Of a DNA stretch of 64,000 nt, positions 18,893-55,430 are shown one piece after another. How positions within the stretch are numbered: position 1 is the stretch's first letter; every line of letters starts with the position of its first letter. Origin of the DNA: Massalongia carnosa (Eukaryota); the NCBI GenBank assembly GCA_965645245.1, contig OZ287082.1, positions 806,001 through 870,000 of the forward strand, in the 5' to 3' direction. The translations under genes and the position numbers were made by a program. Below the pieces are notes generated by a model, which was not told the DNA's origin, ran no database searches, and was given only the letters and a program-made list of their open reading frames with translations.

Positions 18893-18904
18893 GACCTGTG
18901 TGAG

Positions 18905-19823: not shown

Positions 19824-20325
19824 AATGGGAGAATGGGGAGCAATTGAACAAGGCGAGAAACTTGTATAAGTAGTGACTGAAAGAATGTGGATCTGTGACC
19901 TTTCTTATAGACAAGGAAAAGACTGTCCCTCCTTAGCCAGTGTCCACTCTGATGTCTCAACAGAGAAACCTGTTTGCTTAACATGCTTGTTTGCCATGAT
20001 GAGAATTTCAACTTAGGCTTTTTCAAGGGTCCAATTGACCAAAATGAAATTGAGCGCAGGGTTCTTCCAATTTGATTTAACCGGCCTTGGGCCGATTAAA
20101 TAATAAGAGGCAACTGCCGCACAATCTCACCTAGTGCCTTAATGAGGCATAATTGCCAAAAAGAAAGGTCTTTGTGCCTTCGATCAATGAGTTTACTAAG
20201 CTCTTTGATGTCCGATGGATTTTGTATTTTTGCGTGTCCAGAATTCAATCGCGGTTGAAACTGACGCTTTGATGATATTTGTACCAATGGGGCGCTCAGG
20301 CCCAGCAATATACTTTTTTGCCATC

Positions 20326-20715
20326 GACCATCGAGCTTAGCAAGCTCTTTGGTGTCCGAGGACTTGATTGCCTTCGACCATCGAGCTTAGCAAGCTCTTT
20401 GGTGTCCGAGGACTTGGTTGCCTTCGACCATCGAGCTTAGCAAGCTCTTTGGTGTCCGAGGACTTGGGTGCCTTCGACCATCGAGCTTAGCAAGCTCTTT
20501 GGTGTCCGAGGACTTGGGTGCCTTCGACCATCGAGCTTAGCAAGCTCTTTGGTGTCCGAGGACTTGGGTGCCTTCGACCATCGAGCTTAGCAAGCTCTTT
20601 GGTGTCCGAGGACTTGGTTGCCTTCGACCATCGAGCTTAGCAAGCTCTTTGGTGTCCGAGGACTTGGTTGCCTTCGACCATCGAGCTTAGCAAGCTCTTT
20701 GGTGTCCGAGGGCTT
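20326..20715. repeat. 50-bp tandem repeat, about 8 copies, in the Copia-1 5' UTR
   Basis: Unit gaccatcgagcttagcaagctctttggtgtccgaggacttggttgccttc starts every 50 bp from 20326. Confidence 0.95.
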
Positions 20716-21500
20716 CGGTGTAGTACGATCAATGTGTTCATGCTCTTTCTAACACGCAATTTTTGTGCTTCTGACAAGAAATCGCTGTGTACAGAAGAGA
20801 GAACTGATTGATGTGATTTGAGGGATCGTTTCTAAAGACACAGAAAGATTTTAGTCATGTGTCTACGATTCATTGAATAGGAACGATGCTTAGCTGATTG
20901 CACTGCGATGCTGCGGATTAAAAGCTTCGATTCGTTTTAAATCGATAGCACCCTTCCGGGCTCATAACCTGTTGAAATAGGTATATGACTATGGCTATAT
21001 GGCTATGTAATAATAAAGGTATGTATGACCGTGATGTTAAGGATGAAGAGTTGCTATGCAGCAATCTTTTCCTATTACTGGTCACCCTTCTAAGCGAGGT
21101 GATCTTATCTTATCTTGGGACTAAGCCTAATGCGGCATCTACGGTTTCCGTAGATCATCTGTCAATCTAGGGCAGCCGTAGGTGCTATGTTCATTGAATT
21201 GATAGGTGTTCATTGTGCTGGTAGGAATTGGATATTCAACAAATAGTCACTCTTACTATTTTTCTTAAACAAATTCAGCATGCAGTATAATAGCATTTTA
21301 AGACGAGTAAACCTAATTCTATCGATAATGCATTCTACAGTACGAAGTGAACCGCGTGCACAAAGCTCTTCAGCCTTGCTGCAGCTGCACCTGTCCTTCC
21401 TTTTCAGCTCGTCCGCCCCTCAGCCTTCCGTCTTTTATCGTGTGTTGAACTCCTCAATCATCCTCCCTTTACGTCTCCGCAAACTTCGCTCACCTTCCAC

Positions 21501-24500: not shown

Positions 24501-25900
24501 GCAGATTGTGAGGCTGCTGCTCGATTACGGCGCCGTTTTCAATGCTCAGGATCTAGACGGTGATAACGCACTACTTATATTAGCTTCTTGTAGAGGCGAC
24601 GAGCAGATTGTGAGGCTGCTGCTCGATAACGGCGCCGACGTCAATGCTCAGGATCGAGACGGTGATAACGCACTTATATTAGCTTCTTGTAGAGGCGACG
24701 AGCAGATTGTGAGGCTGCTGCTCGATAACGGCGCCGACGTCAATGCTCAGGATCGAGACGGTGATAACGCACTTATATTAGCTTCTTATAGAGGCGACGA
24801 GCAGATTGTGAGGCTGCTGCTCGATAACGGCGCCGACGTCAATGCTCAGGATCGAGACGGTGATAACGCACTTATATTAGCTTCTTATAGAGGCGACGAG
24901 CAGATTGTGAGGCTGCTGCTCGATAACGGCGCCGATGTCAATGCTCAGGATCCAGACGGTGATAACGCACTTATAATAGCTTCTAATAGAGGCGACGAGC
25001 AGATTCTGAGGCTGCTGCTCGATAACGGCGCGGCGCCGACGTCAATACGCCGAAGGACATTTGTAAGGCACTCAAGGTTTCCGGTGACAGTGACCGTGTC
25101 GAAGTCGTCAAGCTAGTTCTAGAGGCCGGTTCTAATCTCAAATCTCTTGATTGTGACTATGATTCCTTCATGCATCTCCTTGCCCTTCAAGGTCATACGG
25201 ATTTATTGCGCTTAATCTACGATCAATACTATGAAACTCCACTTCTGCTTGATCTACACGGTGGAACGCCACTTCAGCTTGCCGCCAGAGGCGGGCATTT
25301 CAAAGATTTTCAGTATCTCCTCAGTCTAGGCTTTGACCCTGCAATGACTGATGCAAAGAGAGAAAACCTGTTACACTATGCTTCTTCTGGAGGTTCATTG
25401 GAGATTCTCAACGCAGTACTACATATGGGCTGTCTCTCCCACACAAAGAGCGAACATTGGAGCCCAACTCACTGGGCCTGTAGGAACGGAAATCCTCATC
25501 TCGTGGAGAGACTGATCAAGGAAGGAATCCAAAGTGACAGCGTCACCGTCCTCAAGCCAGAAGGCCAATGGAGCCCTATCGCCATCGCCATATTCCATGG
25601 AAAAGGAAAGATGCTTAAAGAGCTTTCCGAACATTCTATGTCTCTACTAGACACAGGCGAAGATACTGTGCGACTCCACGGTAAACGTCACGAGGGTTAT
25701 TTTTGCAATGGCTGCTTTTATGTGAGTGAATAGCTTGACAAAACCTAAACACAACTCACATTATCTAGGATATCTACGGACCGCGCTTCCGCTGCAGCAC
25801 ATGTTCAGATTTTGATTATTGTTTTATATGCAACCTTTTCTTAAGTCATCGACATGAGAATCACGAATGGAATTGTTTCGAACCTTTTATGGAAGACTAA
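21501..25900 (+). CDS. Fungal NLR: HeLo-like/SesA-like N-terminus, NACHT, ankyrin repeats, ZZ-type zinc finger; frameshifted at 25026-25035
   Basis: MDPISTTASIIAILQLS N-terminus, Walker A GIPGSGKT, Walker B VVIDAVDEC and many ANK repeats. Predicted introns 21911-21964, 22823-22874 and 25722-25768. Last exon IYGPRFRCSTCSDFDYCFIC. Confidence 0.92.
24110..25030 (+). repeat. Near-identical 99-bp ankyrin-repeat units
   Basis: Repeated gagcagattgtgaggctgctgctcgataacggcgccgacgtcaatgctcag... Confidence 0.93.
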
Positions 25901-31298: not shown

Positions 31299-34200
31299 TT
31301 CCTTACGGCCTCCTCTCCGCATTATTTGATAATTTGGTACTGTTCCGCAAGCCGCCTTCACTTTTTCGGGTTAAATCTAACCGCATGAGGTTGGATCTAA
31401 CCAAATGAGGTAGTCTTGCCTAAAGTAGCAGGGGAGTTCTTTCAGTACTATATAGCTTAAGAATACGTAGTGTGACTGCTAGCTCGTACGCATCCTAGAT
31501 GAGTAGTAAAATAGGTGTTTACTAGTTAAGATTTACACAGGTGGGGGGAGAGGGTCGGGGCGGGACTGTCTCTAAACATCTCGCTTTCTATTCTGTTTCT
31601 CATTTATGTGTTCGATAGAAGCCTGTGAGTTTCTGTTAGATGAGTAATTTTCTTAAACATGATAAATACTATAATCTTATCAAGAGTGTTCAGAAGTGCT
31701 GTGAGACGATAGACGTTCGGAATTGTATAGTCGTCTTTGTCTATTGTTGCGGGGTCATACGTGGTATATAGATGATCAGGTTACAGGGCAGGCCTGTGTA
31801 AACGAGAGTCGGGATAATAGGGGCTTTTTGCTGTCGTTTTCTCCTGCATCTTCACATCTCTACACATACATCTCAAACCTTTACATCTTTTCATATATCT
31901 ACATATACACCTCGACACAAATTATCTTTGTTACATAGTCAAAGTGACAACACATTTATCTGTGCAGTTATCTGGTCCAGTTCATCACATGTTTGTCACG
32001 GTTTAACTACATCCACCCAAGGCCAATTAAAGGGAAGTACGGCACTACCGGCGCACTAACCGATTCCGTTACTCAACCCTTTTAGCGGTGGATTAGACGG
32101 ACATATAGACCGAAAGCTCCGGGACCTTAAACCTTATTCTATCTACGGAAACCGTAGATAGCCTGTCACTATTAAGCAAACATATGGGCAATGAACGAAG
32201 GTCTGAAAGAAATAAAAGGGACGTATCGGAACGACCTTTCAAGGCAAACACAAATAGATAAAAGGGACAAAGGCAGGAAGACTATTTGACTAAATTGTTC
32301 ACTTATTAATAGAGATATAAGCAGCTAGATCGGGCCAAGCGATTATCTACGTAGATTCCTAGAGAGGGAACCTTTTTCTTGTTTCCTCTCTGCATCATTG
32401 ATATTTTCTAGTGCATAGTTTCCTAGTAGATAGTCAATTCCACATCCTGGTTGAACCGTTATATTGTCTTTTCACTTCTTTCTTTTGTTTATTGGACTAA
32501 TCGTCATAATTTCATGAATGATTCAGTGACTTTTTCTATTTTCTTGCGAAACGATACTCTTTTAACTTTTTGATAAACTTTTAGTTTTCTATGATGAGAC
32601 TTCGTATATATTAATCGTCGGCTCGCTTACCTCCGGGATCCGACTTGAAAAAATGTCGACCGCATTTTAGTCGGGGAAAGCGCTTGCATCCCGGAAAGCG
32701 GTTGCATCCCCCAAATTCAAATTTCTTCATCTTTTTGATCATTGACCAACAACCACATTAATTATAAATTAGCCGATACCGTACATAGCTTGAAAATCAT
32801 TTCTCCGACCCAACTGATTATCAATTCAAATCCTTTCCTTTCGAATCAATCCCCTGAACCAATCTCCCCTTTCGAATCATGGATAACGACGCCTCTCTTG
32901 TCTCCACTTTCAACCCCATGGAAAGATTGAAAAAGGTGAAGGAATTTCTGACAAATCATCCCCAAGAAAGTAAAACGGCTGCAGCTAGAATCTACAATAT
33001 CAACGTCAAAACTTTGACGTCTTCCATTCGTCGACCAGAAGGGAGGAAAATTGGAGGACAAAATCAGATACTGAGGGAGCATGAGGCAAGGTCAATTACT
33101 GGCTTTATTAAGTTATTGATTCATGGAATTCTTCCTACACATCAGATGGTTTTCAAGGCTATTGTAAGTCTGAAAATGGCCTATAACCCCCTCGAGGTAG
33201 GCCCGTCAAGAAGATAGTTTCGGAGCTGGTGGAAATATAACAAACTTCATAAAATAAGTGTCACGGTTCTACTCGGCACTACTTCGGTAGACTGGAGCGG
33301 AACAAGCCACAAGCCGAAGTCACGGGATCGCGTGTGCGCGCTAGACTCATCGCGGCATTCACGGTTTCCATAGCTGGTCAATGCTCGAACCTTCTAGATC
33401 CTTCCACGAGTCGGTCGAGGGCTAGGGGCCGCTGGACTATATAGGAGCGAGATTTGTCTTTCAATTGATCATTTCTTCTTCATCTTGATTGTATTCGTTT
33501 CTAGTGTCCCTATGACTTGTCTCTAGGTAGATCATAACATTACAATAAAGATCGTCTTCATCTATTATCCTACGTGAGGGATGTAAAAGAACTCACCGAA
33601 TCGAGGACTGAAGAAAGAACGACCCTTTCATTAGGCAAGTCGTACGAACCAGAGCCAGAACCACCAGAACCTTCAGAACCACCCAGACCCAGAAGAACCA
33701 TCCTCGGTGGCGGATGTAAAAGAACCCCACATCGGAACGACAACGAGCGACCCTTGCACTAGTTAGGCCAGTCGTACGAACCAGAACCAGAACCAGAACC
33801 AGAACCACCAGACACCAGACACCAGAAACCAGAAACCAGACAGCAGGCACCAGACACCAGACATCAGACCCCAGACACCAAAGCACTGACTGCACCGAAA
33901 TTACCGGAAAATCGACGAAAGAGCTTGGAAAGACACGGGAAACCTTGGCAAAGAATCGGAAGCACTTCAGCTAATGAACCAGTTTCACCGCTGACTACTG
34001 ACTGCCTGCACCGCTTGCACCGCCTAGTTCGCGCTCAGGTGATCGCGATTTAAAGCGAAGGGTAGTGTCACGATTCTACACGGCACGACCTCTGCACTCG
34101 GCACCGCCTAGGGCAATCGTAGATGGAACACGCAGGCGCTTTCGATTTCGTTCCCGCAGCTGCTAGAAGGTTCCATGACGACTATACCACATGGGTACTA

Positions 34201-34570
34201 GCGCAGTAGAGGATATATAGGGGCAGGTTCTGGTTGTCGATTGTCTTTTTCCTTCTTCATCTTTATTGTATTCGTTTCTAGTGTCCCTATGACTAGTCTC
34301 TAGGTAGATCATAACATTACAATCAAGATCATTTACCTTCGCTATCCTTCGTGAGGGATATAAAAGAACTCACCTGAAGCACGAAGACACTGAAAAGAAA
34401 CCGAACCTGAACCAAAATGATGAACTGAAACGAAACCAGAAGAACCAGAGACCGCCACTGCGTTGGCACCGAACCGAACCGAACCGAACCGAACCAAACC
34501 CAGAAAACGAACCTAGAAGAACCGAAGGAAGCCTCCCCTACAGTGATGGCGCGACCCATGATAATCGAAG

Positions 34571-35788
34571 ATGACCTCCCAACTAGAAGGGAGTCCATCA
34601 TTTCCAGAAACCCGAGGAACTGACGACGAACTAGAAGTAGCTGAACCTATGATGGTGGAGAACGTGCGACAATTGAAGGCATGGATGGAGCATGACCCAC
34701 AAGCGGTATCCGACATGTTCCAGGATCTGAAGGCCACCTACCTCGACAATCTCATCCGCCATGGTAACGCGGTCGGAAAGATGGAATGTTTTCGAGATAG
34801 GATAAACCAGCTAGAGGGAATTGTGGAGTACCAGAAGGAGGAACTCAGGGAGGCACGGCGTCAGGCCACCAAGGAACCAACCCGAGAATCACCACGCCCT
34901 CGCTCTCCTTCTCACACACCCAGCACCCAGGTGACCGATGGAACGGACAAGAAGAAGTCCATGAAACTCCCTGACCCACCCATCTTTACCGATGGAAAAG
35001 AGATTTCCATTGACCATTGGCTAACGAAGATGCGGAGCAAACTAGCGGCCAATGATGACCACATGCCGACAGAAGTCCTAAAGAAGGCATACGTGGAGAA
35101 CCGGGTCGGTGGCGAAGCTATGGGTCACCTTGAACCTCGACTTCGGAAAGGTGCCATCAGACCCTTTACGACGGCCGAGGAAATGTTCGACCAATTAGAA
35201 CGCATATACGGCGACCCTAACCGCAAGCGGACCGCCATGAACAATTTCCGATCGCTCAAACAAGGAAGCAAGGACTTCAACACCTTTTGGGCCGAGTTCC
35301 AACGTCTAGCAGCTGAGTTGGACCATAACGAGGAAACGCTAATCGGTGAATTGAAGTATAAGCTCTCTTGGGAAATGAGCAGACAATTGGCTACCGGCGA
35401 CCTGGAACCGACCGACCTATACGAATTCGCGCAGAAGTGTCAACGCCTTTACCAGAGCCTCAAGGAGTCGGACCGAAGTAAGGCCAGCATGGAACGGTTC
35501 GCCGAGAAACGTGCTAGCATGGCTCAGAGCACCCCGAGCACCTCCGCTACAAGGACAACCACGACGGCCACCACCAAGACCTACGTGCCGCCCCGCCCGA
35601 CCTCCAACCCATCTACACCAAGGACCACTTACTACATGTCAGACGAGGAAAAGGAGCGACTGACAATGGAAGGTCGTTGTTTCTTTTGCAAGGAAACGGG
35701 ACATTTATCTAGGGACTGCGAAAAGAAGAAGAATCGGCCAGCGAGAATACAGGAGATCGCTGAGGAAGCCAATTCGGGAAAAGAATGA
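34571..35788 (+). CDS. gag: Gypsy gag (retrotransposon gag domain, CCHC knuckle)
   Basis: Intact 405-aa ORF with KLPDPPIF, FWAEFQRLA and CFFCKETGHLSRDC. Confidence 0.94.
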   Translation: MTSQLEGSPSFPETRGTDDELEVAEPMMVENVRQLKAWMEHDPQAVSDMFQDLKATYLDNLIRHGNAVGKMECFRDRINQLEGIVEYQKEELREARRQATKEPTRESPRPRSPSHTPSTQVTDGTDKKKSMKLPDPPIFTDGKEISIDHWLTKMRSKLAANDDHMPTEVLKKAYVENRVGGEAMGHLEPRLRKGAIRPFTTAEEMFDQLERIYGDPNRKRTAMNNFRSLKQGSKDFNTFWAEFQRLAAELDHNEETLIGELKYKLSWEMSRQLATGDLEPTDLYEFAQKCQRLYQSLKESDRSKASMERFAEKRASMAQSTPSTSATRTTTTATTKTYVPPRPTSNPSTPRTTYYMSDEEKERLTMEGRCFFCKETGHLSRDCEKKKNRPARIQEIAEEANSGKE

Positions 35789-38700
35789 CCTCCACCGAAG
35801 GCGCGGATGGAGGTGAACCTTTGTTGATTTCATCTAGCTGTTTACCAGGCGATTTGTTTACGGATGAACCTCTAGTCATACAATGTAGGCTAGGTAACAG
35901 CGAAGAAATAATAGTAATGGGACTGTTGGACACGGGTGCAACAGGACACGCATTCATTGATGAAACGACTGCGCGTGAAGTTTGCGAAAAGCTTCAGATT
36001 TCCCCTCAGAGACTAACACGACCGAAACCGGTGAAAGGGTTCGATGGTAAAAGAGGTAAAGACATTACTCATGCCATCTATCCTACTCTTACCGTGCAAG
36101 ACCATATGGAAACGGTCGCCCCCCTGTTGATCACCAAACTCGGACAACACAAGATGATCCTCGGAAAACCGTGGATGAGGAAGCACGGGGTGATCATAGA
36201 CATGGCCACCGACCAGATAGTCTTTTGGCCCGGACACTGCACGCATTCGGGTATATCGAAGCCACCATCAGAAAAGAAGATAACGAAGACGACAAAAGAA
36301 CCCGCTGAACCGAAGAAGGCCATGAAAATCCTGACCAGAATGAATCAAAACGAACCTGGAAAAACCAGGCCAGAACCGGCAGTTTCAACCAAGACGATGT
36401 CGAACAAGGGACTATCAGAAGGACTATCAGACTCCGGAATCAAGGTTAAACCGACTACCGAGGAAAAGCCGCTAGAGATGGCGATGATAGGGGCCGCTGC
36501 GTACCGATTATTGTCCAAACAAAAGGACGTTGAATTATTTTCCATCTCATTGAAAGACATCGAGTACCAGCTGAATAAAGAAGACCGTCCCCCTACTGAC
36601 CCGAAGACCGTAGTTCCCCCAGATTACCATGAATTCCTGGATGTCTTTTCAAAGGCTGCATCCGACACGCTGGCACCTCACCGCCCCTATGATCATCGAA
36701 TCATTCTGGAAGGCGGAAAAGATCACGGACATAGCCCTCTCAGAAGCATGTCCCAAAAAGAGCTGGAATTCGTCAAGAAATACCTGGAAGAGAACCTCCG
36801 AAAAGGGTTCATTGAGGCTAGCCACGCAGCTTGTTCGTCCCCAATTCTTTTGGCCAGAAAGCCCAATGGAGGACTTCGCTTTTGTGTCGACTATAGAAGG
36901 CTGAACCAGCTGTCAAAGAAAGACCGCTATCCAATCCCGCTGATCGAGGAAACACTGGCCCAGCTGAAGGAAGCTAAGATCTTTTCAAAAATTGACATCC
37001 GACAGGCGTTCCACAAGCTCCGAATGGCCATGGAATCTGAAGACCTGACCACGTTCAACTCCCGTTTTGGCGCTTATAAATACAAGGTATTACCGTTTGG
37101 ACTTTCCGGAGGACCGTCGACCTGGCAGCACTTCATCAATGATGTGTTGTTCGATTATCTGGACAAATTCTGCACGGCTTACCTGGATGACATTCTGATT
37201 TATAGCAAGAACCTGAAAGAGCATCGGGAACATGTGCGGGCCGTTTTGACAAAGCTTCGAGAGGCCGGACTTCAGGCTGACGTAGACAAATGTGAATTCC
37301 ATGTGACGGAAACGAAATATCTGGGACTGATCATAGGAGTTGATGGCATTCGCATGGACCCGGCCAAAATCAAAGCTATTCAGGAATGGGAAACCCCCAC
37401 CTGCCTACGTGAAGTTCGGTCGTTCATTGCTTTTTGCAATTTCTATCGTCGGTTCATCAGGGGTTTTTCAAAAATTGCCAAACCATTGAACGCCCTTACA
37501 AAGAAAGAACGGATATTCGAGTGGACCCCAGCATGTGAAAAGGCTTTCAGGACGTTACAGAAACGGATCGGTGAAGCCCCAATCCTCATACATTTCGACC
37601 GGAACAAGCAGTGCTACTTGGAAACGGACTCTTCGGACCATGTCAATGGAGGTGTGTTGTCCCAGATAGGAGACGACGGAGAACTTCACCCGGTAGCCTT
37701 CTTTTCAAAGAACATGAGCCCAGCGGAATGCAACTACGAAATCTATGACAAGGAACTGCTAGCAATCATTCGATGCTTTGAACAATGGAAGCCGGAACTC
37801 GAAAGCACGGAGTTACCAGTGAAAATCTTCACCGACCATCGTAGCCTGGAGTATTTTATGACCACGAAGAAACTAACTAGACGGCAAGCCCGATGGGCGG
37901 AGTTCCTTTCGGAGTTCAATTTCGTCATCACCTACCGACCTGGAAAGAAAAATGAAAAAGCAGACGCGCTAACCCGAAGGCCAAACGATAAGCCCCACGA
38001 CGATGATGATGAAAGGCAGCAGCACCAATTGCAGACGCTACTGCCCCCGGAAAGATTGGAACTTCAGCCCATTGAAGAAGCGACGGAACCAGAAGAAACG
38101 ACACGGAACGATGAACCCGACCCCGAACTCCCGACCCTCGACGAAAGAATCAAACAGGAAAACCTCGAAGACGAACTCTGCACCCGAATACGAAACGCGA
38201 TAAAGGAAGGAAACTCTGATGACGACTCTCTACCGGACATAAAGAACTGCACCGAGAAGAACGGACTGCTATACAAACGAAAGGGCTTATGGGTGCCGGA
38301 CAAGAAAGAGACCATCCTAGAGGTTATTCGGCAAATACACGACCAAGTGGCGGTAGGGCACCCCGGAATGGCCAGAACGGTGAATGTAATCGGCCGGAAC
38401 TACTATTGGCCAGGCATGAACAAGGACATACGCCGCTATGTGCGAAATTGCCATGTGTGTCGACGAGCCAAGGCCCCAAGGGACAAGTATAATGGACTGC
38501 TGAAACCGCTACCCATACCAGAAAGACCATGGATGGACATCACCCTAGACTACGTTACCGGCCTCCCGAAGAGCAATGGAAATGACGCCATCCTGATGGT
38601 AGTAGACCGACTGTCCAAAGAGAGACACTATATCCCATGCACATGTGATGAAGAAGGAACTACGTCCGAGGCCACAGCAAAACTCCTAGTGGACAACGTA

Positions 38701-39615
38701 TGGCGCTATCATGGACTCCCAAGCAGCATAGTATCGGACCGGGGCCCCCAATTCACATCAACAGTTTGGAAAGCCTGGTGTAAAATCCTTGGAATCACAG
38801 CGAAATTGTCCACAGCCTATCATCCAGAAACAGATGGACAAAGTGAAATCGCGAATCAGGAAATGGAACGTCACCTTCGGAGTTTCGTGAACTATAATCA
38901 GGACGACTGGGCGGACGTTCTTCCAATGGCGGAATTTGCCGCAAACAGCGCACCATCGGCCACTACCGGACTGTCACCATTCATGGCCACGAAAGGTTAT
39001 GAACCAAGGATGAGTTTCGACCCAATCGAACTGTCGTCAGAATCAACAAGGGAAAGGCTAGCCAATGGAAAAGCCCGAGCGATTACCAAGGACATGAAGA
39101 AAATCTGGGATTTCGTCAAACAAAATATGGGAAAGGCCCAAGAAAGGCAAATAACAGCAGCTGACCGACACCGAAGAGACGTCTCATATGAAGTAGGCGA
39201 CATGGTATGGTTATCTACTCGAAATATCAAGACAGAACGCACGTCCAAGAAATTGGACCATAAGATGATTGGACCCTATCGAGTCAAGAAGTTAGTAGGG
39301 TCATCCTGTCAACTAGAATTGCCACCATCAATGAAAATTCACGATGTCTTCCATACCAGCTTGCTTCGAAAGGCCTCAGACGACCCACTCCCAGGTCAGA
39401 TAAACGAGCCACCGCCACCCATAGTCGTAGAAGGTAGCGAAGAATGGGAACTTGATGACATTCTGGACTCACGAAAGCGGTACCGAAAGGTGCAATACAA
39501 GGTCAAATGGAAGGGAATTGACGAGGACCTGACATGGTATGATGCCGAAGGTTTCGAAAATGCAAAAGAAGTGGTGGAGGACTTCCATCAACGAAACCCA
39601 AATAAACCGCGATGA
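35785..39615 (+). CDS. pol: Gypsy pol (PR-RT-RNaseH-IN-chromodomain), intact, in the -1 frame relative to gag
   Basis: Motifs LLDTGAT, YLDD, ETDSSD, VSDRGPQF, DGQSE and WELDDILDSR..YKVKWKG. Slippery heptamer G GGA AAA at 35776-35782. Confidence 0.96.
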   Translation: MTSTEGADGGEPLLISSSCLPGDLFTDEPLVIQCRLGNSEEIIVMGLLDTGATGHAFIDETTAREVCEKLQISPQRLTRPKPVKGFDGKRGKDITHAIYPTLTVQDHMETVAPLLITKLGQHKMILGKPWMRKHGVIIDMATDQIVFWPGHCTHSGISKPPSEKKITKTTKEPAEPKKAMKILTRMNQNEPGKTRPEPAVSTKTMSNKGLSEGLSDSGIKVKPTTEEKPLEMAMIGAAAYRLLSKQKDVELFSISLKDIEYQLNKEDRPPTDPKTVVPPDYHEFLDVFSKAASDTLAPHRPYDHRIILEGGKDHGHSPLRSMSQKELEFVKKYLEENLRKGFIEASHAACSSPILLARKPNGGLRFCVDYRRLNQLSKKDRYPIPLIEETLAQLKEAKIFSKIDIRQAFHKLRMAMESEDLTTFNSRFGAYKYKVLPFGLSGGPSTWQHFINDVLFDYLDKFCTAYLDDILIYSKNLKEHREHVRAVLTKLREAGLQADVDKCEFHVTETKYLGLIIGVDGIRMDPAKIKAIQEWETPTCLREVRSFIAFCNFYRRFIRGFSKIAKPLNALTKKERIFEWTPACEKAFRTLQKRIGEAPILIHFDRNKQCYLETDSSDHVNGGVLSQIGDDGELHPVAFFSKNMSPAECNYEIYDKELLAIIRCFEQWKPELESTELPVKIFTDHRSLEYFMTTKKLTRRQARWAEFLSEFNFVITYRPGKKNEKADALTRRPNDKPHDDDDERQQHQLQTLLPPERLELQPIEEATEPEETTRNDEPDPELPTLDERIKQENLEDELCTRIRNAIKEGNSDDDSLPDIKNCTEKNGLLYKRKGLWVPDKKETILEVIRQIHDQVAVGHPGMARTVNVIGRNYYWPGMNKDIRRYVRNCHVCRRAKAPRDKYNGLLKPLPIPERPWMDITLDYVTGLPKSNGNDAILMVVDRLSKERHYIPCTCDEEGTTSEATAKLLVDNVWRYHGLPSSIVSDRGPQFTSTVWKAWCKILGITAKLSTAYHPETDGQSEIANQEMERHLRSFVNYNQDDWADVLPMAEFAANSAPSATTGLSPFMATKGYEPRMSFDPIELSSESTRERLANGKARAITKDMKKIWDFVKQNMGKAQERQITAADRHRRDVSYEVGDMVWLSTRNIKTERTSKKLDHKMIGPYRVKKLVGSSCQLELPPSMKIHDVFHTSLLRKASDDPLPGQINEPPPPIVVEGSEEWELDDILDSRKRYRKVQYKVKWKGIDEDLTWYDAEGFENAKEVVEDFHQRNPNKPR

Positions 39616-40294
39616 TCGCACTAATCGCATCGGTCACTTAGTCTCAGATTAAGCGGAGATAACGCGGACATTATCGCGGTCAGGTGACTCGCGATCTAAA
39701 GCGGGGGGTAGTGTCACGGTTCTACTCGGCACTACTTCGGTAGACTGGAGCGGAACAAGCCACAAGCCGAAGTCACGGGATCGCGTGTGCGCGCTAGACT
39801 CATCGCGGCATTCACGGTTTCCATAGCTGGTCAATGCTCGAACCTTCTAGATCCTTCCACGAGTCGGTCGAGGGCTAGGGGCCGCTGGACTATATAGGAG
39901 CGAGATTTGTCTTTCAATTGATCATTTCTTCTTCATCTTGATTGTATTCGTTTCTAGTGTCCCTATGACTTGTCTCTAGGTAGATCATAACAATTTGGAA
40001 GAATCATTGAAAGAATTCGATTTAGAAGCATCTTTTCAACCATGAGATGCGAATAATTGGTAGAATGCGGGGTATGCGGGGTATGCGGGGTATGCGGGGT
40101 ATGCGGGGTATGCGGGGTATGCGGAGTAAGCGGAGAATCACGAGGGTCAGGGGGTCAGGGGGGTCAAGGGAAATGATTTTGACGACGGTGATGATGACGG
40201 CGATAATTTTCAAGCTATGTACGGTAGCGACTGATTTTTAATCAATGTGGTTGTTGGTCAATGATCAAAAAGATGAAGAAATTTGAATTTGAGG

Positions 40295-44575: not shown

Positions 44576-44639
44576 ATGAAATATAAATTCACTTTGTAGG
44601 TATAGTAGCATGATTGTCATTGAAGGTAATTATCTATAT

Positions 44640-47600
44640 AGGCTATTTATCTGCTTTATACATACCAAGAAATCAAAGCTGGGAATTCGTCGAAAAGCGT
44701 GGATCATCTGCGATCGAGGTCGCAAGGCCAGACCGCAAGGCGAAGAACGACGTCACAGTAGCAGTAGACGAATTGAGTGTCCCTTTTCCTGCATCGCTAC
44801 CTTCGTGAACGACGTCGCCTGGCATTTGGAAGTAGTCAAATCGGAACATAATCATGAAGCTAGCTTGAGTGGAGCACATCCCACGCATCGAAGAATCGCC
44901 TTGATCGAGCATAAGGAGGAGATTTCTCGTCCATTGACTGTACAAACCAATCCGGCCAACGTGCTGTCGAGTCTTCGTATTGGGGCTCCGACTCCGAATT
45001 CGGTCAGATGGGATGAGAATGGCAATCCTGAAGTCGTCAATCCGATGTTTATTAGTCGAGACATCTACAACTTTCGAGCTCAATTGCGACGAATTGCTTT
45101 TGGCTCATTGACTCCGATACAAAGCCTGATTTAGGAGTTTGACAAGGGCGACTGGGTATACGAGTTGCAGACAAATGATGAAAATCAGGTGAGTTTGACA
45201 AGGACAGGACAACTGAAGTTGCAGACTAATGATGAGAACCAATCAGATCGTCAATCTTTTTTCAGTAAATGCAGTACTCAGACTCTTTTGAAGGCAAATC
45301 CAGAAGTTTTAGTGATGGATTGCACCTACAAAACCAACAGATTCAAAATGCCTTTGTTGATCATCGGCGGACAGACCGCATTGCATACTACGTTCTATGT
45401 CGCCTTCTGCTTCATGCATGAGGAGAGAAATGAGTCTTACATCTGGGCCATGACTCGTTTGAAAGTCTTGTACTCGCAGCTAGAACTTCCTTCTCCAACT
45501 ACGACAATCACCGACATGGATAGAGGTTTGATGTCGGCAATTGAGCTGATTTTTCCATCTACCAGTCATTTATTGTGTATCTGGCACATCAACAAGAATG
45601 TCCTAGCTCATTGCAAGAAATCATTCAGTACTGAGGCATGGGAAGTCTTTTACGGACGATGGAAATCACTTATTAAGGCTGATTCCGAGCCTAATTTTGA
45701 AGAGATGTGGGGACAGTTTCGAATCACATACAATCGTACACATGCTGATTTGGTGAAGTATCTTTGTTGAACAAAAAATCAACCAGGCATACGGCAGCGG
45801 GATGCAGGAGAAGAGGGTCTAGGGCTATCAAGGATAGGCAAAGAGAAGTGCTTGGCAAACGTGATGCAGGTACTCCGTATTTCCAGTGAAGATACTCCAA
45901 ATTTAGCTATCTGCTGAACTGAATTCTGAACGACTGAATAGCTAAATTACATGAGGAATCATCGTCTCTTTATACTGCTTGAGGGCCTCCATCTCGGCCT
46001 ATATCAAATGCATGAACCTGCTTCCTTTGAACCTTTTCAGCTGGGCAAAATACACCTCGTTGCTGACCGGAGACACCGAGACACTCAGTGATCATGAACA
46101 GCTGAATTGCCTCCGAAATGTAGCATTCTTGCTGCATACTTTTGCCTCCTCGTAGTTGCCGAAGTCGTGCCGAAATCTGAAGCTTTTCGCATATAGCATA
46201 TGATTGCCTAATCTGGAAATTAGTAAGCAGGAGGCAAAAGAACCTCGGTCGCAAATATTCAGGTATCTCGGCAAATTCCAATACTCCCACTCCGAGTATC
46301 TGAATGGCTTCATACCCTCGCATGCCCGAAAACGAATTAAAAGAAATCCTCCGCGTTTTGCCCATCTGAACACGATGCTCAGGTAGGCCATGGGCCCTCG
46401 TGGGCCGATGTGGTTGCGATAAACTATCGCTAACTCTCTAGGTCTCCTTCATACCTAGTAGAGCACGTCCGCGTTCAAAAGCCGCCTTGGTCAAAGGCTT
46501 TGTCAGAATATCAGCTGCCATCTCGTTGGTGGGATCATAGCTTTTTCTGATACTCCAGCTGGTCGGTCCTGGGTTCCGTGGGGGTGGCGGCAGTCAGTGC
46601 TGCATATCCATCAATCGAGTTGAAACTGGGTGTGCATTTTCCATCCCATATTTCGAAATGAAGTTGTTGATGTATACTGACTGATCTAGTGTTAGATTTC
46701 TAGATTTTCGGTTTCTCCGCACTCGCATTCCCAAGATGTGGTCCACCTCTCCCAAATCCTTCATCTTAGACTCCCGTTTTAGCTGTGCCTTGACTGCATT
46801 GATGCGGGATATTTTGGCGGTAAAAATGAGAAGATCATCGACGTATACTGAGATAATGACGCCGGCTTGGAGGTTTATGAACACACAATTGTCGGCTGAG
46901 ATTGGTTCGAATCCAATGGATCTCAGATACCTTCTGAACTTTCTGCTCCAGATTCGGCCGGATTGCTTGAGACCATAAAGGCCTTTTTGCAGTAGAAGGG
47001 CCTTATTCTTTTCGTTCGGAACATCCATTCCCTCTGGTATTTCCATGTAGATTTCTTCTTCCAACTCACCTTCTAAATAGGCATTTGAAACGTCCATTTG
47101 ATGTGCTTCCAGGTTCAGTAACGCAGTAATTGCCATTAACATTCTCAGAGATTCGAACCTCAAAGTGGGTGTAAATGTCTCTTCGTAATCAATGCCATAT
47201 TTCTGACTGAAACCTCTAGCACAAAGTCTGGCCTTGAACCGCTCAATAACTGCGGTGGATGTGTATTTGATTTTGAACACCCATTTCGAAGTTATTAGCT
47301 CACGGTTTTTCGGCCTCGGCACGATAATAAACGTGCGTTTCCACCGCAGCGCTTCCAGCTCTTCTTCCGTTGCCCCCCTCCATTCACGGCGATTTGGTCC
47401 AGTCATGGCTTCCTTATAGGTAGCCGGTTCAGGCAATCGAGCTATATAAACGATAGCCATTGGTGCTTTTGACTTATCAAATGCCTTGGAGTCATACGGC
47501 TTTTTCGTGCGTCTTGACCGGGAAGATGCTGCTGAAACAAGCTGTTGATTTTTCGGTGAGAGCGTGGCTTTCTGCCCCCTTTTTGAATTCTGTGCTGGCT

Positions 47601-50600
47601 CTGGCGAACTTCGTCCAGTAGTCGGCAGACCTTCGAATTCTGGCGCTCGGATTTCAGTTTCCGAGATCTCGTTTCCTTCTTCTTGATTTCCCGGAGTTTC
47701 GCGATTTCCGGGAATATCGCCTTCATTCAGTGAGGGATTCTCTGCACCCTCAATACTTTCTCCGGGAACATTATCGCCTAGAACTATTGCGTCGTCATTT
47801 TCTAGGTTTGATGTTCCCTGAAACTCTAAGGCTGTCTCAGGGTTGGTAAGTTTGTGCGTAGGAACTCCTTGTTCCTCATCCGGTTCGTAGTCCGAATCTG
47901 CAACATCTAACTCCCACTCACCCGGTTCCACTGGTGCGTTCAGTAAAGGGCCTCCTGGCCAATCCTCGAAAAACTTCACTGAGGTATGTACTCCCACTGT
48001 TTTCGTATCAGGATTATGCACCTTATACTGTCTTGATGACCGGAATCCAACGAGAATTCCCTGATGGGATACCTTATCCATCTTCGCACGAGTTTCGCTA
48101 GGAACGTGCACGTGTACGAGGCATCCATAGGTCCTTATATGGCCTACCTCTGGCTTCTTCTGGTGCCACATCTCATATGGGGTCTTCATATCAAACCGCT
48201 TCGACGGAAGCCGATTCTTCAGATAATTGGCAGTCAGTACTGCGTCCCCCCAAATGACCTAGGCAACCCAGACCACATCTGCATCGCTGATACCACCTGC
48301 ATCAGCGTTCTATTGAGTCTTTCTGCAACCCCATTCTGCTCAGGGGTATAGGCCGTGGTAAACTCCACCACTATTCCTTCCGGCAATATCGTTCTAGCCA
48401 GTTTTCATACTCCAAAGCGTTATCACATCGCAGGGTCCTGATTCGCTCCCCTGTCTCGATCTCGGCACGATTTTTGAACATCCGAAAGAGCTTTTCTAGC
48501 TCGCTCCTGGCCCCGAGGTAAACATCCGAGTAGCCGGTGGCTTCGTCGGTGAAGGACACAAAACACTTGGTCCCCTGGTTATTGGGCACCCGATATGGAC
48601 CCCAAAAGTCTGAATAGACTCGTTCCAGACAGCGGGTAGCCCGTTCTGGTGGGTTTCGGTTGATTATTCGAGTCATTTTCGTCTGAGTACATGTGATGCA
48701 TTTGCATTCCTTCTCATGGTCATGTAACTTGGCTCCCACTCCATTAGTGGCTTCATGGAGGACAGTGAGTCTGTATGCTCCCACGTGCCCCATGCGTCCA
48801 TGCCATAGTAGGTATCGGTCTCTTTCTAATTGGGACCGAGTGCTAATTGCTTTTTTGTTGTCTTTTGCATTTTCTGGCATTCTTGGCAAATTCTGATTTC
48901 CGGACGATCTTTCGCTGATATTTGGATCAGAAGTAATAGGGATTTCTTCCTCGGGATCCTCAGTGGCTATCAGGGCCACTCCGCTTCCTGCGGATCGGAG
49001 CAGGTACGTTTTTCCCACCAAAAACCCGGTGGCGAGGCAGGTACCTCTCCTCAAAATTTCGACGCAACTCAATCCAAACCTCACAATCATTCCTCTAGCT
49101 TGTAATGCCGAAATTGACAACAAATTCGCATCCAGCTCAGGTACGTATAACACTTCTGTGAGTTTGAACTTCTTATCCTCCAGCTCCACAGCCACATCAC
49201 CTTTACCAGGTGATTTAATCTTTACCCCATTAGCTATCGTCACCCAACTTACCTGCAGTGTAAAGTTTGTGAATAGCTTCCGATTGGCCGTCATATGGCG
49301 ACTGGCCCCTGAGTCAATAATCCACTCATTCGGGGGTATTACTTTGGAAGTGAGTTTTGCCACTCTAGCAAAACTCTTAGGGGAGGAGCACTTCTGGGAA
49401 GTGCGATAGCGCGCCCCATTGTTGACGTAGTCGGTGTAATCCTCATGGTCGCTCTGGTCCACGTGGTCAATGGCCATGCGACCGTACACTGACTCGTCGT
49501 CGCTATCCTCACTGTCGCTGTCCCTTGTGCCGGATGCTTTGCGTGCAAGGTGACCTCCTCGGCCCTTGCCACGTCTGCCATCCCTTAACTTTTCCTCTCC
49601 CTTACCTCCGTCCTTGGCTTTCTTGCCCTTTGATTGGGCCGTGCTGGCGGTATCTTCATTGTAGGCCTTGCCTTCGTCACTGGCAAGCCATTCAAAACAC
49701 TTGGTTTTCACGTGACCAGGTTTCTTGCAGTGGTAACAATTCCCCTTAAACTTATAGGGCTTGGCGGAGACCTTATTAGCGATTTCATAGGGGGTCCCCG
49801 CGTTATCTCTGGCCATCTGCTCGATTTCCTTATATTTTTCAATCACCTTCCGAAACGTGAGGTTTTCCAAGTCGTTTAATTGCAATTTCACCGCATTATA
49901 CCGCTCGTGATCCACCGAATCCATTAGGACTAGGGCCATCATGATATCGGATGGCTTCACCTCTGGGTTGATGTTTGCGATGATATCCCTCATATCTTCT
50001 AGCTCTGCTGCAGTCTCATCCACTCCTTCCTCTACCTTGGCCTTATACGTATGAAATCGGCGGAGCATGGGGACCAAGCGTGTCCTGGAGTCTTTGCCGT
50101 GAATTTCCTTTTGGGCATCCCATACCCCTTTGGCAGATTGCTGCAGTTGCACATGCTTCTGCTGCCTTTCGTCCATGGCTCCCATGAGGATGGTGATTGC
50201 TGTGGCATCATCAAAGATCCACGAGTCTCTATCCAAAGGCATGCTTCCTGGTGGTTCGAGTATCTCTCCACTGACTACTTTCCAGAGCCCTTTGGCAATT
50301 AAGTGCACCTTCAAAAGGTGGGACCACAGCCTGTAGTTGTCGCTAGTAAGTTTTGGCAGTTTTACTTCACCTTTCACACCGGCACCCCTTTTATATCCCC
50401 CATCAATGGCTGTCAAAGCCGCTAGGCCCTTGTCCTTTGATGAGGAGGCCTTGCTAGCCTCGGGGGTGGTGGATGCCCTCATGGCACCTCCGGTATCTTG
50501 GCTGTCTTCTGAGACAGACATTTTGGTGGTGAAGGAGTCGTCCTATTCGAGTGCCGAAATGGATAGCTAGGAGTTCAAACAAGCACACGGGCTATATCCC

Positions 50601-52710
50601 CTAAGATAAAAGATCTAATGATAAATACTCCTGGATTTGAATAGAGTGCTATCCGGGCTCATAACCTGTTGAACAAAAAATCAACCAGGCATACGGCAGC
50701 GGGATGCAGGAGAAGAGGGTCTAGGGCTATCAAGGATAGGCAAAGAGAAGTGCTTGGCAAACGTGATGCAGGTACTCCGTATTTCCAGTGAAGATACTCC
50801 AAATTTAGCTATCTGCTGAACTGAATTCTGAACGACTGAATAGCTAAATTACATGAGGAATCATCGTCTCTTTATACTGCTTGAGGGCCTCCATCTCGGC
50901 CTATATCAAATGCATGAACCTGCTTCCTTTGAACCTTTTCAGCTGGGCAAAATACACCTCGTTGCTGACCGGAGACACCGAGACACTCAGTGATCATGAA
51001 CAGCTGAATTGCCTCCGAAATGTAGCATTCTTGCTGCATACTTTTGCCTCCTCGTAGTTGCCGAAGTCGTGCCGAAATCTGAAGCTTTTCGCATATAGCA
51101 TATGATTGCCTAATCTGGAAATTAGTAAGCAGGAGGCAAAAGAACCTCGGTCGCAAATATTCAGGTATCTCGGCAAATTCCAATAATCTTAATGCCACCT
51201 ACATTTCTTTTCGTCAGAGATTTGTAAAGTGCTGGACTGACCGAGTGAGGCATTTCGAGACAACGACTACTTCGCGAGGTGAGGGCGAACATGCTGTATT
51301 GAAAAGGCAGCTGGGAACCTCCAATGGTGACTTAAAAGCAGTCGTAGATGGCGTCGCCTTGCTCCTAACCAATGAGCTTCATAATCACCTCATCGCTATC
51401 AATTCGGCTAAGGATCGCTATCCTACCGACTTGCGCAAACCAATTTTCCAACGTTTGGCGAGTCGGGTCACCCCGTTTGCACTTCGAAAAATTCTTGGTC
51501 AGTACAATTTGTTGGTTGATCAACCAACGGCGATCAGGGCCTGCACCGAGGTCTTTACTACTGTCACCGGCCTGCCCTGTAGTCACAGAATTCAGGAACG
51601 ACTGTACGATGACGGTGTTTTGTTGTTGGAGGATGTCCATCCTCATTGGAGGTTGGTTTTGATCAAACATTGTTGAATTTAACTAATTCTAAATCTAGAT
51701 TTGAAAGAGACCTTCCAGCTGATGATAATGATCCCTTGCTGGCGGTGCAGGATCCCGCTGTCGTGCGACCTCGCGGAAGCCCTCGAGGTTCCGAAAACAG
51801 AAGACAACAAGTCTTTGAAGCTTCCACCCTGCGAGAACCTTCCTTATTCGAACGGATTGAGGCGGAAATAGCTGATCTACAAGGCGGGGAGGTGGCTCCG
51901 GACGTGGAAGCTGTCGTACATCGAGCTGATCCAGCTCCAGGGCGGGGACGCGGGCGGGGACGTGGGCGAGGGGTACGAGCACGAGGACAGGGACAGGGAC
52001 AGCGACAGGAATCGGGACAGGGACAGGGACAGGGACGGGGAAGAGGGCGGAGACGAGGTAGGGCATCTCGGCAAGGGGCGCTGCTACAAATCAAGAAGGG
52101 GCGATACCGAATGAGGTTAAGTGGCATGAAATCAGAGTCTGATTCATGGAGATGATGTCAATCGACTCCATTTCATCAAGGCAATTGCTGTCCATGAGAG
52201 ATGTGTTAAATGGTAAGGCTACCATCGGTTAGATGGTCAGACTACCACTAGTATAGGCATCCATCGTGAGCTGCTAGGCATCTATAGGAGGTGCCTAATA
52301 GGCAGTTCGGGAGGTTCCTTGCAAAGTGCCTAAAAAAGCAGATGTGGGAGTCAAGGTCTGATCGTCAGGGTGCCTAAACAAGGGGGGACAAGGTCTGACC
52401 GTTTAGGCTCCTAGATGTGACTATTTTGTGACTGCTATATAAAGCAGACTTATAGCCCACATAGATAATTACCTTCAATGACAATCATGCTACTATACCT
52501 ACAAAGTGAATTTATATTTCATTAAGATGTGCACATTCTTTTCAATTCAAATTTTGAACGTGGGCGAAAATTTTCAGTCGCTTATCCTAATGAGGTTTAG
52601 GGAGGGGTCCAGCCCTAACCCCTAGAATTTTTTTAGCCGGAAGGGGTGTGTCTAGGTAGCCGGAGAGGGTGTGTCTAGGTAGCGGATGGGGTGTCCATAT
52701 AACAGTACCC
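44640..52710 (+). mobile_element. Mutator (MULE) DNA transposon, 5'-truncated, transposase split by Copia-3
   Basis: FAR1/WRKY-like CDRG..IECPF..EHNH. DDE motifs MDCTYKTNRFKMPL, ITDMDRGL, LCIWHINKN and TTSRGEGEH. SWIM-like C...GLPCSH. Probable right TIR with subterminal repeats at 52637-52710. Confidence 0.88.
45765..51185 (-). mobile_element. Ty1/Copia element (Copia-3) with apparently identical 519-bp LTRs but defective pol
   Basis: LTRs 45765-46283 and 50667-51185. TSD ATCTT. PBS GGTTATGAGCCC. PPT ggagtgggag. ORFs 50521-48371 (gag, PR WIIDSGASRH, IN) and 48189-46594 (RT YVDD). Confidence 0.95.
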
Positions 52711-53019
52711 TATAATAAATCCGAATCTATAAAACTATCTCTCAAGATTATCGATATGAGAAGTCTTGAATAATGTTATGCATGAGATAATATTTCGTGA
52801 TATAGACACGATGTTTAATTTTGCATAAGGATAATATCTTACTGTTATTGAAAGAGAATTAAAGTCAATTCCGCAGCACACGTTTCCGCAAACCTATTTT
52901 AATTCCTATCCCTAACCCGTCATATTCTTCAACTACCATTTCACTCTAGCCGCGCGTTCGCCGCCGATAGAATATCCCGCAACGTCCCGTTATCATTATC
53001 CTCATCTCTCATAGCCGGA

Positions 53020-55126
53020 AAATCAAAACCACGACGACGACAACGACGATCGCGATTCAGAAACATCGCCCGCTCGAAATCGATCAGCATGAGGCGATCC
53101 AGTTAGCGGTTCCAGAGGACGTTGGGCGGGCGCAGGTCTACTTAATTGATTCCTACGAGTGTCACTTCGGCGACGGTGCGGCGGAGTTCTGCTTGGAAGG
53201 ATGGTCTTGTTTTGACCGTCTCGTAAGATTCGGCCACGTCTCCTCCCCAGGACATAAGGAGCATGTGCACGATTCGGACCTCGACGTCGAGATGGTAGGG
53301 TTTGGCGAGGTCAATGTTGCCAAGATAGACGGGAACGGCCGCGCCTTGAAGATGTTCCAGATGGCGGTACACTCGCCCTTCATGTCGCAAGTTGGATACG
53401 AATGCGCGAATGGTGCCTTTGGCCACGAAGACATAGCCGTACGAGGTCAATCGGATTCGGAACAATGCCGCTCGAGCACCTCGTTGGCCTAGGGGTTCGC
53501 AGTTCCGGTCAAGGGTACGGTCCAGCTGCCTGTTAACCAACGCCGTGAACTCTGGCAGGCTGATGGCGTGGCGATCGCTCTTTCTCCGATGCTTGGACAC
53601 GTTTGGACAGCGCTCGTCCAGCGTGGATTTCTGGCGGATCCCGAGCAAGCACTTCTGACTGCAGTACCGTTGTCTTTGGCACTTGCCTTTGTCCTGATCC
53701 TTGCACAGAGACTGTCGCTCTTCCTCATTGGATCGATTTGACAGCTGCCGCACTTGTCCGTTTTTTGGATTCTTCATGGAGGACTCCGTCTCGGACAAAT
53801 CCGTCGATGATTCTTCAGGAGCAGGATCGATCTTAGAGGGCTAGCAGCGCTTCCTTCCTCGCAGCCGAAGCTTGATCGGAGTTCGATCGGAATTCTTCGA
53901 AATCTTGAGTCCACCGTTGGCCTTGAAGAGAGAACTAGGCGTTTCGACACGTTCTCGATCTTCGTCCGATTGACTCGAAAATCCGTCAATTTTTCCCACC
54001 TTTCCAGCTCATCCATCATTTTGTTCCGCCACCCCTGGTTCCTCGGGGTGAACTGCTCCGACTGAAACGCCATGAGACACAGGCCAAGCACCTGAGCAAC
54101 AGCAGTGCGTTGCCAGTCGTAGCCATTCGTGTCCACGTCCTCGTTCGGGATGGCCAAGTGATAATACACTGTGGCTGGGTTTTTGGCTCGCACCCAGAGG
54201 AAGACGAGTGCAACTCCTGTCGTGATGTAACAGTACTCCAACCCGTTCTCGATCATATCCGAGTAAGCCTGCGTGACCGCGCATCCTATGCGCCAGTCCG
54301 CTTTATGATCTTTCTGTTCCTGCTCCGTCGCAAATATGGACACGTCGATGACATCGTTAGCTAAGTTCATGGGCCGCAGACATGTTTGCAGGTCTTGCAC
54401 TGAAAGTTTGTGAGCCGCTTTGTATTCGGCCACCAACAGCAGTTTGTGACTGCCGGCCGTCTTGTAGATGCAATATTGATCCGGTCGACCGCGTTTTCGC
54501 GCTTCTGGAGGATGACGCGTGTCAGCGTTGCCCTGAATTCTCGGATTCCGCAGGTCTTCCATCATATCATGCTCCAGCGCCTCTTCTCCTTGGTCATTGA
54601 GGGAGTTCGCATGGTTATCAAATCCTAACCCATCGAATTCTGTCATCATGCTCAGTTGCTCCATAATCTTTGCCGTGGGCCCCTCCACTGCGAGTCGCTC
54701 GTAGGATATGAGATCTGATTTGCTGGCATATTTGCGCTCACAGAGGTCGTCGCCAAGCTCTTGCAAATGTTGCACCGTGGCAAATCGCCGGAGATGAGGC
54801 GTGCAGTCCGAGTGAAAGCGTTTTCGCGCATCGATCAACAACGATGCTTGGGCTCCGTCGAAGCCCTCTCAAGGCCGGAGTTTGCTGGGACATACCTTGC
54901 CGGTCACGCTGGTAAGTGCGCCCGTCGTGGTTATACTCTTGTTTACTTGAACGGAAAGTCGTTTCGAAATATGCACGCGGCAGGCTTGCAGGTACTCGTC
55001 GAACGTTGTTGCCCGTAAGCGCTGCTCGGCTTCTTCTCTGCGCTGCTCAGCTTCTTCCCTGCGTCGCTCCAGCTCCCTCAAGCGTTCCTCAAGACGCTGA
55101 AAATCGGATTCTCTTCGTGCCGCCAT
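53020..55126 (-). pseudogene. Spok-like protein (coiled-coil, PD-(D/E)xK nuclease, Cys cluster, kinase-like domain), disrupted
   Basis: Coiled coil then TTFDEYLQAC. Nuclease-like RPDQYCIY..LLLVAEYKAAHKL. Cys cluster YCSQKCLLG..LDERCPNVSKH. Kinase-like FVAKGT, LQGAAVPVYLG and DLRPPNVLW..LIDFERA. Stops at 54869, 53142 and about 53103, plus a frameshift. Confidence 0.8.
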
Positions 55127-55301
55127 GACCGCTACGAGGAAATGTCATGTAGTGCAATGAATATGTGTTTGTGTATTTCGAGTTGTTTCGATTGATATTA
55201 CCTTGACAACAATAGCCTGAAGCATGACAAGATAAGATTAGATGCCTTTTATATCCTCGTCTTCCGAGTGAAATAATATGACACACAAGAGAGTGTGGGT
55301 A

Positions 55302-55430
55302 CAGTCGAACCCCGCTATAGGGAAGTTCCGTATAACGAAAACCTCGGCATAACGAATTTATTTCTCGGATTTTTGGTAGTTATATGGTAAAAACCTCATT
55401 ATATTGAAAAACCCTCCATAACGAACACAC
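55302..55430 (+). mobile_element. End fragment of a pogo/Tigger-like DNA transposon
   Basis: TA-cagtcgaaccccgctata... with repeated ataacgaa. No matching other end was found. Confidence 0.55.

Follow-up and report, generated by a model that had tools for sequence, protein, structure and literature searches.

A decayed Spok-family gene and its near-identical paralogs in a transposon-rich region of a probably lichen-associated fungus

The closest described counterparts of the gene analysed here are the Spok genes of Podospora. In SPOK3, residue K240 is required for killing, and D667 together with the cysteine cluster is required for resistance, while a truncated protein of residues 1-490 is toxic unless the wild type is present (PMC6660238). 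In both E. coli and yeast, SPOK1 is reported to be toxic by damaging DNA (PMC9972908). The Podospora Spoks are described as having coiled coils of variable length, occurring in several similar copies flanked by transposons and including pseudogenes (PMC6660238), and Spok-like genes, often pseudogenes near transposons and including a resistance-only allele, have been reported across filamentous ascomycetes (Grognet et al. 2014, PMC4022471). Literature searches combining Spok or spore killers with lichen-forming or lichenized fungi found no study of Spoks in lichens among the papers listed, and none of those listed by a search linking Spok to Crinkler REase-kinase proteins contains Spok.

The locus lies in a window of 64,000 nucleotides, by which we mean the whole stretch of DNA analysed, at positions 806,001-870,000 of a chromosome-sized contig (C16) in a 52-Mb assembly of 25 contigs. 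A first-pass annotation made from the sequence had described it as a decayed SPOK-like gene, and had stated that in SPOK proteins the nuclease serves killing and the kinase resistance, in agreement with PMC6660238. The description holds: both halves of the gene match SPOK1-4, the domain order is the same and the reading frame is broken. We refer to this copy as W and to its paralogs as A, B and C on the same contig and D on contig C19.

Anatomy and breaks of the window copy

Six-frame translation places copy W on the minus strand as an intronless gene with its ATG at 55126 and its stop at 52941-52943 (Table 1). The first-pass annotation had given its extent as 53020..55126; the start stands, and the gene runs about 80 nt further at its other end. 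The domains named there were all recovered, namely the N-terminal coiled coil (a helix over residues 2-37 in the model of paralog A), the PD..EYK nuclease-like motif (RPDQ...AEYKAAHK), the C-x3-C-x13-C-x5-H cluster, which continues with x6-H, and a kinase-like C-terminus with the motifs VAKGT, HEGRVY, D-L-R-P-P-N and IDFER. Of the "about three stops and a frameshift" counted earlier, the single 1-nt frameshift is correct and the stops number four. A count of the cysteine pattern gave one occurrence in the window, compared with a mean of 0.04 over 100 shuffles. In the alignment, the nuclease residues D216, E234 and K236 of W correspond to SPOK3 D219, D238 and K240, and they are kept in A, B and D as well. 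As it stands, W can yield at most a peptide of up to 85 residues or internal fragments, neither killer nor antidote.

Table 1. Features of copy W and its immediate surroundings (window positions)
Feature	Position	Strand	Remarks
Mutator-like (MULE) transposon	44580..52710	+	Right end abuts the shared unit at 52710
2.7-kb unit common to W, A and C (with B to 55256)	52711..55424	-	Gene plus flanks of about 230 nt (downstream) and about 300 nt (upstream)
Spok-family pseudogene, copy W	52941..55126	-	Intronless; collinear with the 728-codon intact paralog A
Kinase-like domain	53052..53525	-	Catalytic Asp at 53136-53138 = SPOK3 D667
Two stops either side of the kinase catalytic loop	53142-53144, 53103-53105	-	
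Cys/His cluster, C-x3-C-x13-C-x5-H-x6-H	53568..53663	-	= SPOK3 C493, C497, C511, H517, H525
In-frame stop, disordered linker	53841..53843	-	
1-nt frameshift	53989..53991	-	Separates nuclease from Cys cluster and kinase
PD-(D/E)XK nuclease domain	53990..54499	-	D216 (54479-54481), E234, K236 (54419-54421)
QxxxY motif position	54257..54271	-	= SPOK3 294-298; ends in Asp in W and B, but in Tyr in A, C, D and SPOK3
In-frame stop, codon 86, upstream of nuclease	54869..54871	-	Site of a Trp that is invariant in 104 homologs
N-terminal coiled-coil repeat, REEAEQR-type heptads	55013..55126	-	Copy B has 21 residues more, copy D fewer
Repeat fragment upstream of the gene	55298..55424	.	Common to W, A and C, not B; begins TA-CAGT, presumably a Tc1/mariner-like end

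Long-read assemblies are prone to false frameshifts, a caution raised by Sandell et al. 2025 (PMC12693581). The breaks in W look genuine rather than errors of assembly, because 43 private substitutions are scattered along the copy and the five breaks lie among them. Contigs identical to W over 55166-55297, an interval where A and C differ at seven positions, were found in two public sequencing runs; one of these is possibly the source sample, in which case the support for W is not independent. In one of the two runs, a minority with a depth of about 925-975 did not count towards the other letter at three breaks; a window-type allele would fit this, and contig ends could give the same signal. 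The open-frame letter is the majority form at all five breaks in each of the four public runs examined, which represent three studies and four of the nine runs listed, all picked by their carrying the gene. All five breaks are also covered by a lichen-metagenome contig of 1,976 nt, with 53 differences to the window. It comes from the one run labelled lichen metagenome among five that carry the DNA, so that the hint of a lichen association stems from a single study. No RNA run carrying the sequence was present among the runs listed.

Family membership, paralogs and selection

Translated as two halves with X at the stops, W was compared with the Swiss-Prot-named Podospora proteins SPOK1-4. One half matches them at 27-29% identity (E 2e-27 to 4e-30) and the other at 33-36% (E 6e-44 to 7e-48), while the intact paralog A aligns over 689-730 positions at 29-31% identity (E 1e-81 to 1e-84). 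The family PF27653 (SPOK2_N) is assigned to paralog A and to all 120 listed of its 197 homologs in precomputed annotation; a local Pfam scan covering A and both halves of W returned no family above the cut-off. Among the matches listed, the nearest named homologs are ascomycete proteins at about 40% identity; Podospora proteins were absent from the matches listed in the first two homolog searches and present in the third. Eleven landmark positions of SPOK3 were compared, the majority with numbering given by Vogan et al. 2019 (PMC6660238). They carry the same or a like residue in 11 of 11 cases in A and D and in 10 of 11 in W and B, the sole loss being the nuclease QxxxY tyrosine, now Asp. The cysteine cluster and the kinase aspartate (SPOK3 C493, C497, C511 and D667) are retained in the C-terminal half of W and in A, B and D. 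The number of coiled-coil repeats is variable, with lengths that differ among A, B and D.

An AlphaFold model of A, built on an alignment of 104 sequences, reached a pLDDT of 80.6. Its kinase-like part resembles ULK4, BRAF and Rio2 (best Z 12.7, rmsd 2.7, 142 aligned), and residues 45-358 resemble the BpuSI endonuclease domain 3s1s_A (Z 10.1, rmsd 3.3, 144 aligned). Foldseek and PDB sequence searches showed kinases only among the matches listed, and none of the 60 listed PDB sequence matches was a solved SPOK structure. A single-sequence fold of the nuclease domain (pLDDT 37.6) was discarded. Two of the checks suggested with the first-pass annotation, similarity to SPOK1-4 and a predicted structure, gave significant matches for both W halves and for A, and a model of A with restriction-endonuclease and kinase folds.

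In a tree of 63 proteins, built by a quick method, rooted at the midpoint and weak in its deep branches, the Podospora/Fusarium clade (SPOK4 and the FuSpoks) comprises 15 members with a support of 100, and all nine proteins from the present genome fall outside it; A, B and D group with one unnamed protein. Judged by its sequence, the gene is a member of the SPOK family outside the clade that contains the proven killers. Because the lineage is about 30% identical to the Podospora SPOKs and lies outside their clade, we infer killing and resistance rather than assert them. The SPOK-like family as a whole comprised 4,754 clusters in a profile search at E up to 0.001.

A DNA search of the genome returned seven matches, which represent five copies. 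Copy A (C16, about 508-511 kb) is intact and encodes 728 aa. Copy B (about 310-313 kb) is open, with 749 aa, three extra coiled-coil heptads and the same QxxxY loss as W. In copy C (about 362-365 kb) the frame is interrupted near codon 323 by a young LTR element about 885 bp long (C16:363,007-363,890), whose 113-bp LTRs are identical and which is flanked by a 5-bp target duplication; the copy retains an N-terminal frame of 327 aa and a frame of 430 aa that starts inside the 3' LTR and contains the whole cysteine cluster and kinase. We take the element to be TRIM-like. It has been recently active; a second copy of it, 99.3% identical, lies at C16:283,760-284,643, and further copies of its LTR at about 240, 252 and 609 kb. 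Copy D is divergent and intact (727 aa; 74% DNA identity). The first-pass annotation had supposed that intact alleles may segregate in other isolates and had proposed a survey of paralogues; that survey found the three further C16 copies and D, so that unbroken copies (A, B and D) already reside in this genome.

The four C16 copies are confined to 550 kb. Across an alignment of 2,186 coding columns, W shares 96.8-97.1% identity with A, B and C, and the identity between A and C is 99.4%. With D as outgroup, four sites join W to B, four join W to A/C and four set W apart. Five cluster members of A that might have passed for independent alleles were dropped; all come from one contig and correspond to A, B, two pieces of C and a fragment of W. 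A protein search gave 29 matches, 25 of which were retrieved; grouped, the 29 correspond to 18 Spok-like loci, a lower bound, distributed over at least 11 contigs. Nine of the 18 have a single open frame, 734-913 codons in length, and the other nine lack one full frame. The family looks recently active in this fungus. Elsewhere in the genome, a second recently amplified Spok-like subfamily has three open frames (on C1, C5 and C19) with short branches and long N-terminal extensions; a broken relative belongs to the same subfamily.

The lineage of A and D is under long-term purifying selection: dN/dS between the two is 0.19 in domain 1, 0.16 in the nuclease, 0.21 in the Cys-kinase part and 0.41 in the linker, at a dS of about 0.88. 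The private codon changes of W comprise 12 synonymous and 27 nonsynonymous or stop changes, for which neutrality is not rejected (p 0.18), and three nearly invariant residues are altered. Those of B comprise 10 synonymous and 7 nonsynonymous changes, indicating purifying selection (p 0.002); the contrast between W and B is not significant alone (Fisher p 0.074). At the last residue of QxxxY, 92 of 104 close homologs have Tyr and none has Asp, and Tyr is found in 14 of the 16 loci of this genome whose motif was read. Among wider homologs, however, 103 of 218 carry Val at this position, and 2 of 139 representatives carry Glu; we therefore propose only as a hypothesis that B may have lost killing through the change.

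RIP was considered as a cause of the decay of W and set aside, as CpA->TpA transitions are not dominant. C>T changes account for 16 of the 43 private changes, 8 of these at CpA (p 0.025), and 27 are of other kinds; six long repeat pairs on C16 have ts/tv ratios of 1.1-2.3 without CpA dominance.

Genomic surroundings

The window consists mostly of Gypsy, Copia and DNA transposons, and 51% of the 711-kb stretch of C16 around it is self-repeated. Identical LTR pairs and long open frames in the LTR retrotransposons at 15229-21241, 33257-39992 and 45765-50966 point to recent activity. A NACHT-like NTPase (NPHP3_N) with a long ankyrin array of 99-nt repeats (21351-25733, plus strand) is NLR-like and stands alone among transposons. 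Copy A has two HET-domain genes close by on its upstream side, at distances of about 8 and 16 kb, and these make up a cluster of cell-death-type genes together with a CHAT-domain gene that lies past W by about 27 kb.

The first-pass annotation had noted that SPOK homologues are common in accessory regions and Starships. The surroundings of this gene are transposon-dense, but no Starship captain was found in the 219-930 kb stretch of C16. None of the 69 genome matches to DUF3435 (PF11917) is on C16 (60 candidates scored, a lower bound), and tblastn with one captain's frames gave no match in C16:219,001-930,000; apparent captain matches on C16 came from non-captain frames and were dropped. The 69 matches occupy at least 15 contigs, and several of them score identically on different contigs (C11, C13 and C19; two on C7), a sign that other parts of the genome may carry many recent Starships.

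The MULE that abuts the shared unit is interrupted by a Copia element (about 45765-51186) and, at about 52206-52524, by a short insertion. Its left end is missing, and its body is bordered on either side by inverted pieces of a single short repeat (44576-44660 and 52438-52522); together these suggest that a local rearrangement took place.

Interpretation and comparison with known systems

We consider that W is probably a dead duplicate of a SPOK-family gene recently amplified to four copies on C16, whose intact copies (A, D and perhaps B) act as single-protein toxin-antidotes and which spread by transposon-associated duplication. Family membership, domain anatomy, the intact or broken state of each copy and long-term purifying selection on the lineage are direct observations; by analogy with Podospora and Fusarium, the intact proteins would act as toxin and antidote, and the gene would act in meiotic drive. 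On this model, the PD-(D/E)XK domain of intact copies would damage DNA, the cysteine cluster and kinase would neutralise the poison in cis and in trans, and spores or nuclei without the gene would die, with copies spreading passively through transposon-associated duplication. The decay of W would have been free of cost, as the codon-86 stop would abolish all toxic product, and the near-identical intact paralogs would have compensated for any earlier break on the kinase side. Had the frameshift come first, it would have left a nuclease without its antidote, so that either the codon-86 stop or the QxxxY change would have preceded it, or the paralogs would have given cover in trans. Four of six Fusarium homologs were reported as inert in yeast (PMC12693581); by that analogy, kept residues may be no guarantee of activity, which counts against the favoured model. 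The position of the lineage outside the Podospora/Fusarium clade and the great size of the family count against it as well.

The 3' end of the 2.7-kb unit is identical within 1 nt across copies that meet three different flanks (in W, A/C and B), as would be expected if the unit were itself mobile and moved by its own nuclease. We regard this as highly improbable and rejected it: the junction of W is exactly the right end of a multi-copy MULE, that of B lies within or next to a tandem repeat belonging to another element, and A and C lie within a common segmental duplication of 7.2 kb that includes a Gypsy fragment. The 5' ends also vary among copies, and neither terminal repeats nor target duplications were seen. 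A 3' flank of about 185 nt, exclusive to A and C, is probably the original one, and the MULE may have inserted in an ancestor of W and B, with later cutting at the MULE end producing the B junction.

Two further explanations concern what the intact copies do. They could act vegetatively as an addiction module that kills nuclei losing C16 or the region, or rivals after hyphal fusion, so that a repeat-rich dispensable region is kept and W is a decayed spare. The clustering of four copies within 550 kb of one contig, the self-repeated character of the region and the nearby HET-domain, NACHT-ankyrin and CHAT genes would suit such a role, which has been reported in Fusarium oxysporum (bioRxiv 10.64898/2026.10.04.756499) and proposed in PMC12693581. 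This explanation is compatible with the favoured one and differs from it only in the site of killing; we find it rather unlikely, given that the gene is present in all four runs examined from three studies, although these were picked by the gene, and that Spok-like loci on at least 11 contigs show no exclusive tie to C16. Slightly less probable still, in our view, is a SPOK-like nuclease-kinase that does not drive, serving non-self defence, cell death or resistance to other Spoks, and passively copied, with W an ordinary pseudogene. The roughly 30% identity to proven killers, the separate lineage, the HET and NLR-like neighbours and a purifying selection compatible with any useful function all accord with it, as do the three further Spok-like genes at fixed loci in Podospora itself (PMC4022471). 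Against it, the catalytic residues important for killing and resistance are all kept, and the recent gain of copies, the change in coiled-coil repeat length and repeated loss (9 of 18 loci) fit selfish turnover.

If the model of a recently amplified toxin-antidote gene is carried to its full extent, C16 would hold the whole life cycle of a driver in a SPOK lineage evolved apart from the known killers: A the killer; B an antidote-only suppressor without the QxxxY Tyr, under purifying selection; C on its way to a stand-alone antidote through the ATG in the 3' LTR that opens the 430-aa frame; and W a dead end derived from a B-like copy. This joint reading is doubtful at present. If true, killing would be general across the SPOK superfamily, and the copies would offer natural alleles with which to study the way the kinase gives resistance. 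Independently of it, four copies at 97-99% identity and a 67%-identical paralog provide natural, directly testable alleles, and the series bears on killing by SPOK homologs outside the Podospora/Fusarium clade and on protection by the kinase.

Compared with known systems, the present genes share with Podospora SPOK1-4 the domain order, an intronless gene of about 730-775 aa, a variable coiled-coil repeat, the YKAAHK and TQxxxYM nuclease motifs, the cysteine cluster, the kinase Asp and the occurrence of several similar copies among transposons. They differ in their 29-31% identity and separate lineage, in the (D/E)XK position, occupied here by E and not D, and in H-x6-H in place of H-x7-H; no Starship was found in the stretch of C16 searched. 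With its multiple stops, W resembles SpokΨ1 of P. anserina (PMC6660238), differing from it in keeping the 5' end and having no internal transposon; the transposon insertion of SpokΨ1 has its counterpart in C. Copy B may parallel the resistance-only Spok2 allele of P. anserina strain A, in which the nuclease region is changed and the kinase intact (PMC6660238, PMC4022471); the change in B falls at QxxxY and not at the positions reported for strain A, and any antidote-only effect would be a hypothesis. Multi-copy expansion in repeat-rich regions with many broken copies is shared with the Fusarium FuSpoks (PMC12693581; bioRxiv 10.64898/2026.10.04.756499), from which the present genes are set apart by 31% identity to an F. 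oxysporum member of the SPOK clade and by the lack of a captain in the stretch of C16 searched. The Type IIG restriction endonuclease BpuSI (3s1s) and the ULK4, BRAF and Rio2 kinases match A at the level of fold only, at 12-20% identity. A Spok pseudogene is in itself ordinary and a known kind of gene; what adds interest here is a recent series of four copies in differing states, in a SPOK lineage apart from the known killers and in a probably lichen-associated fungus.
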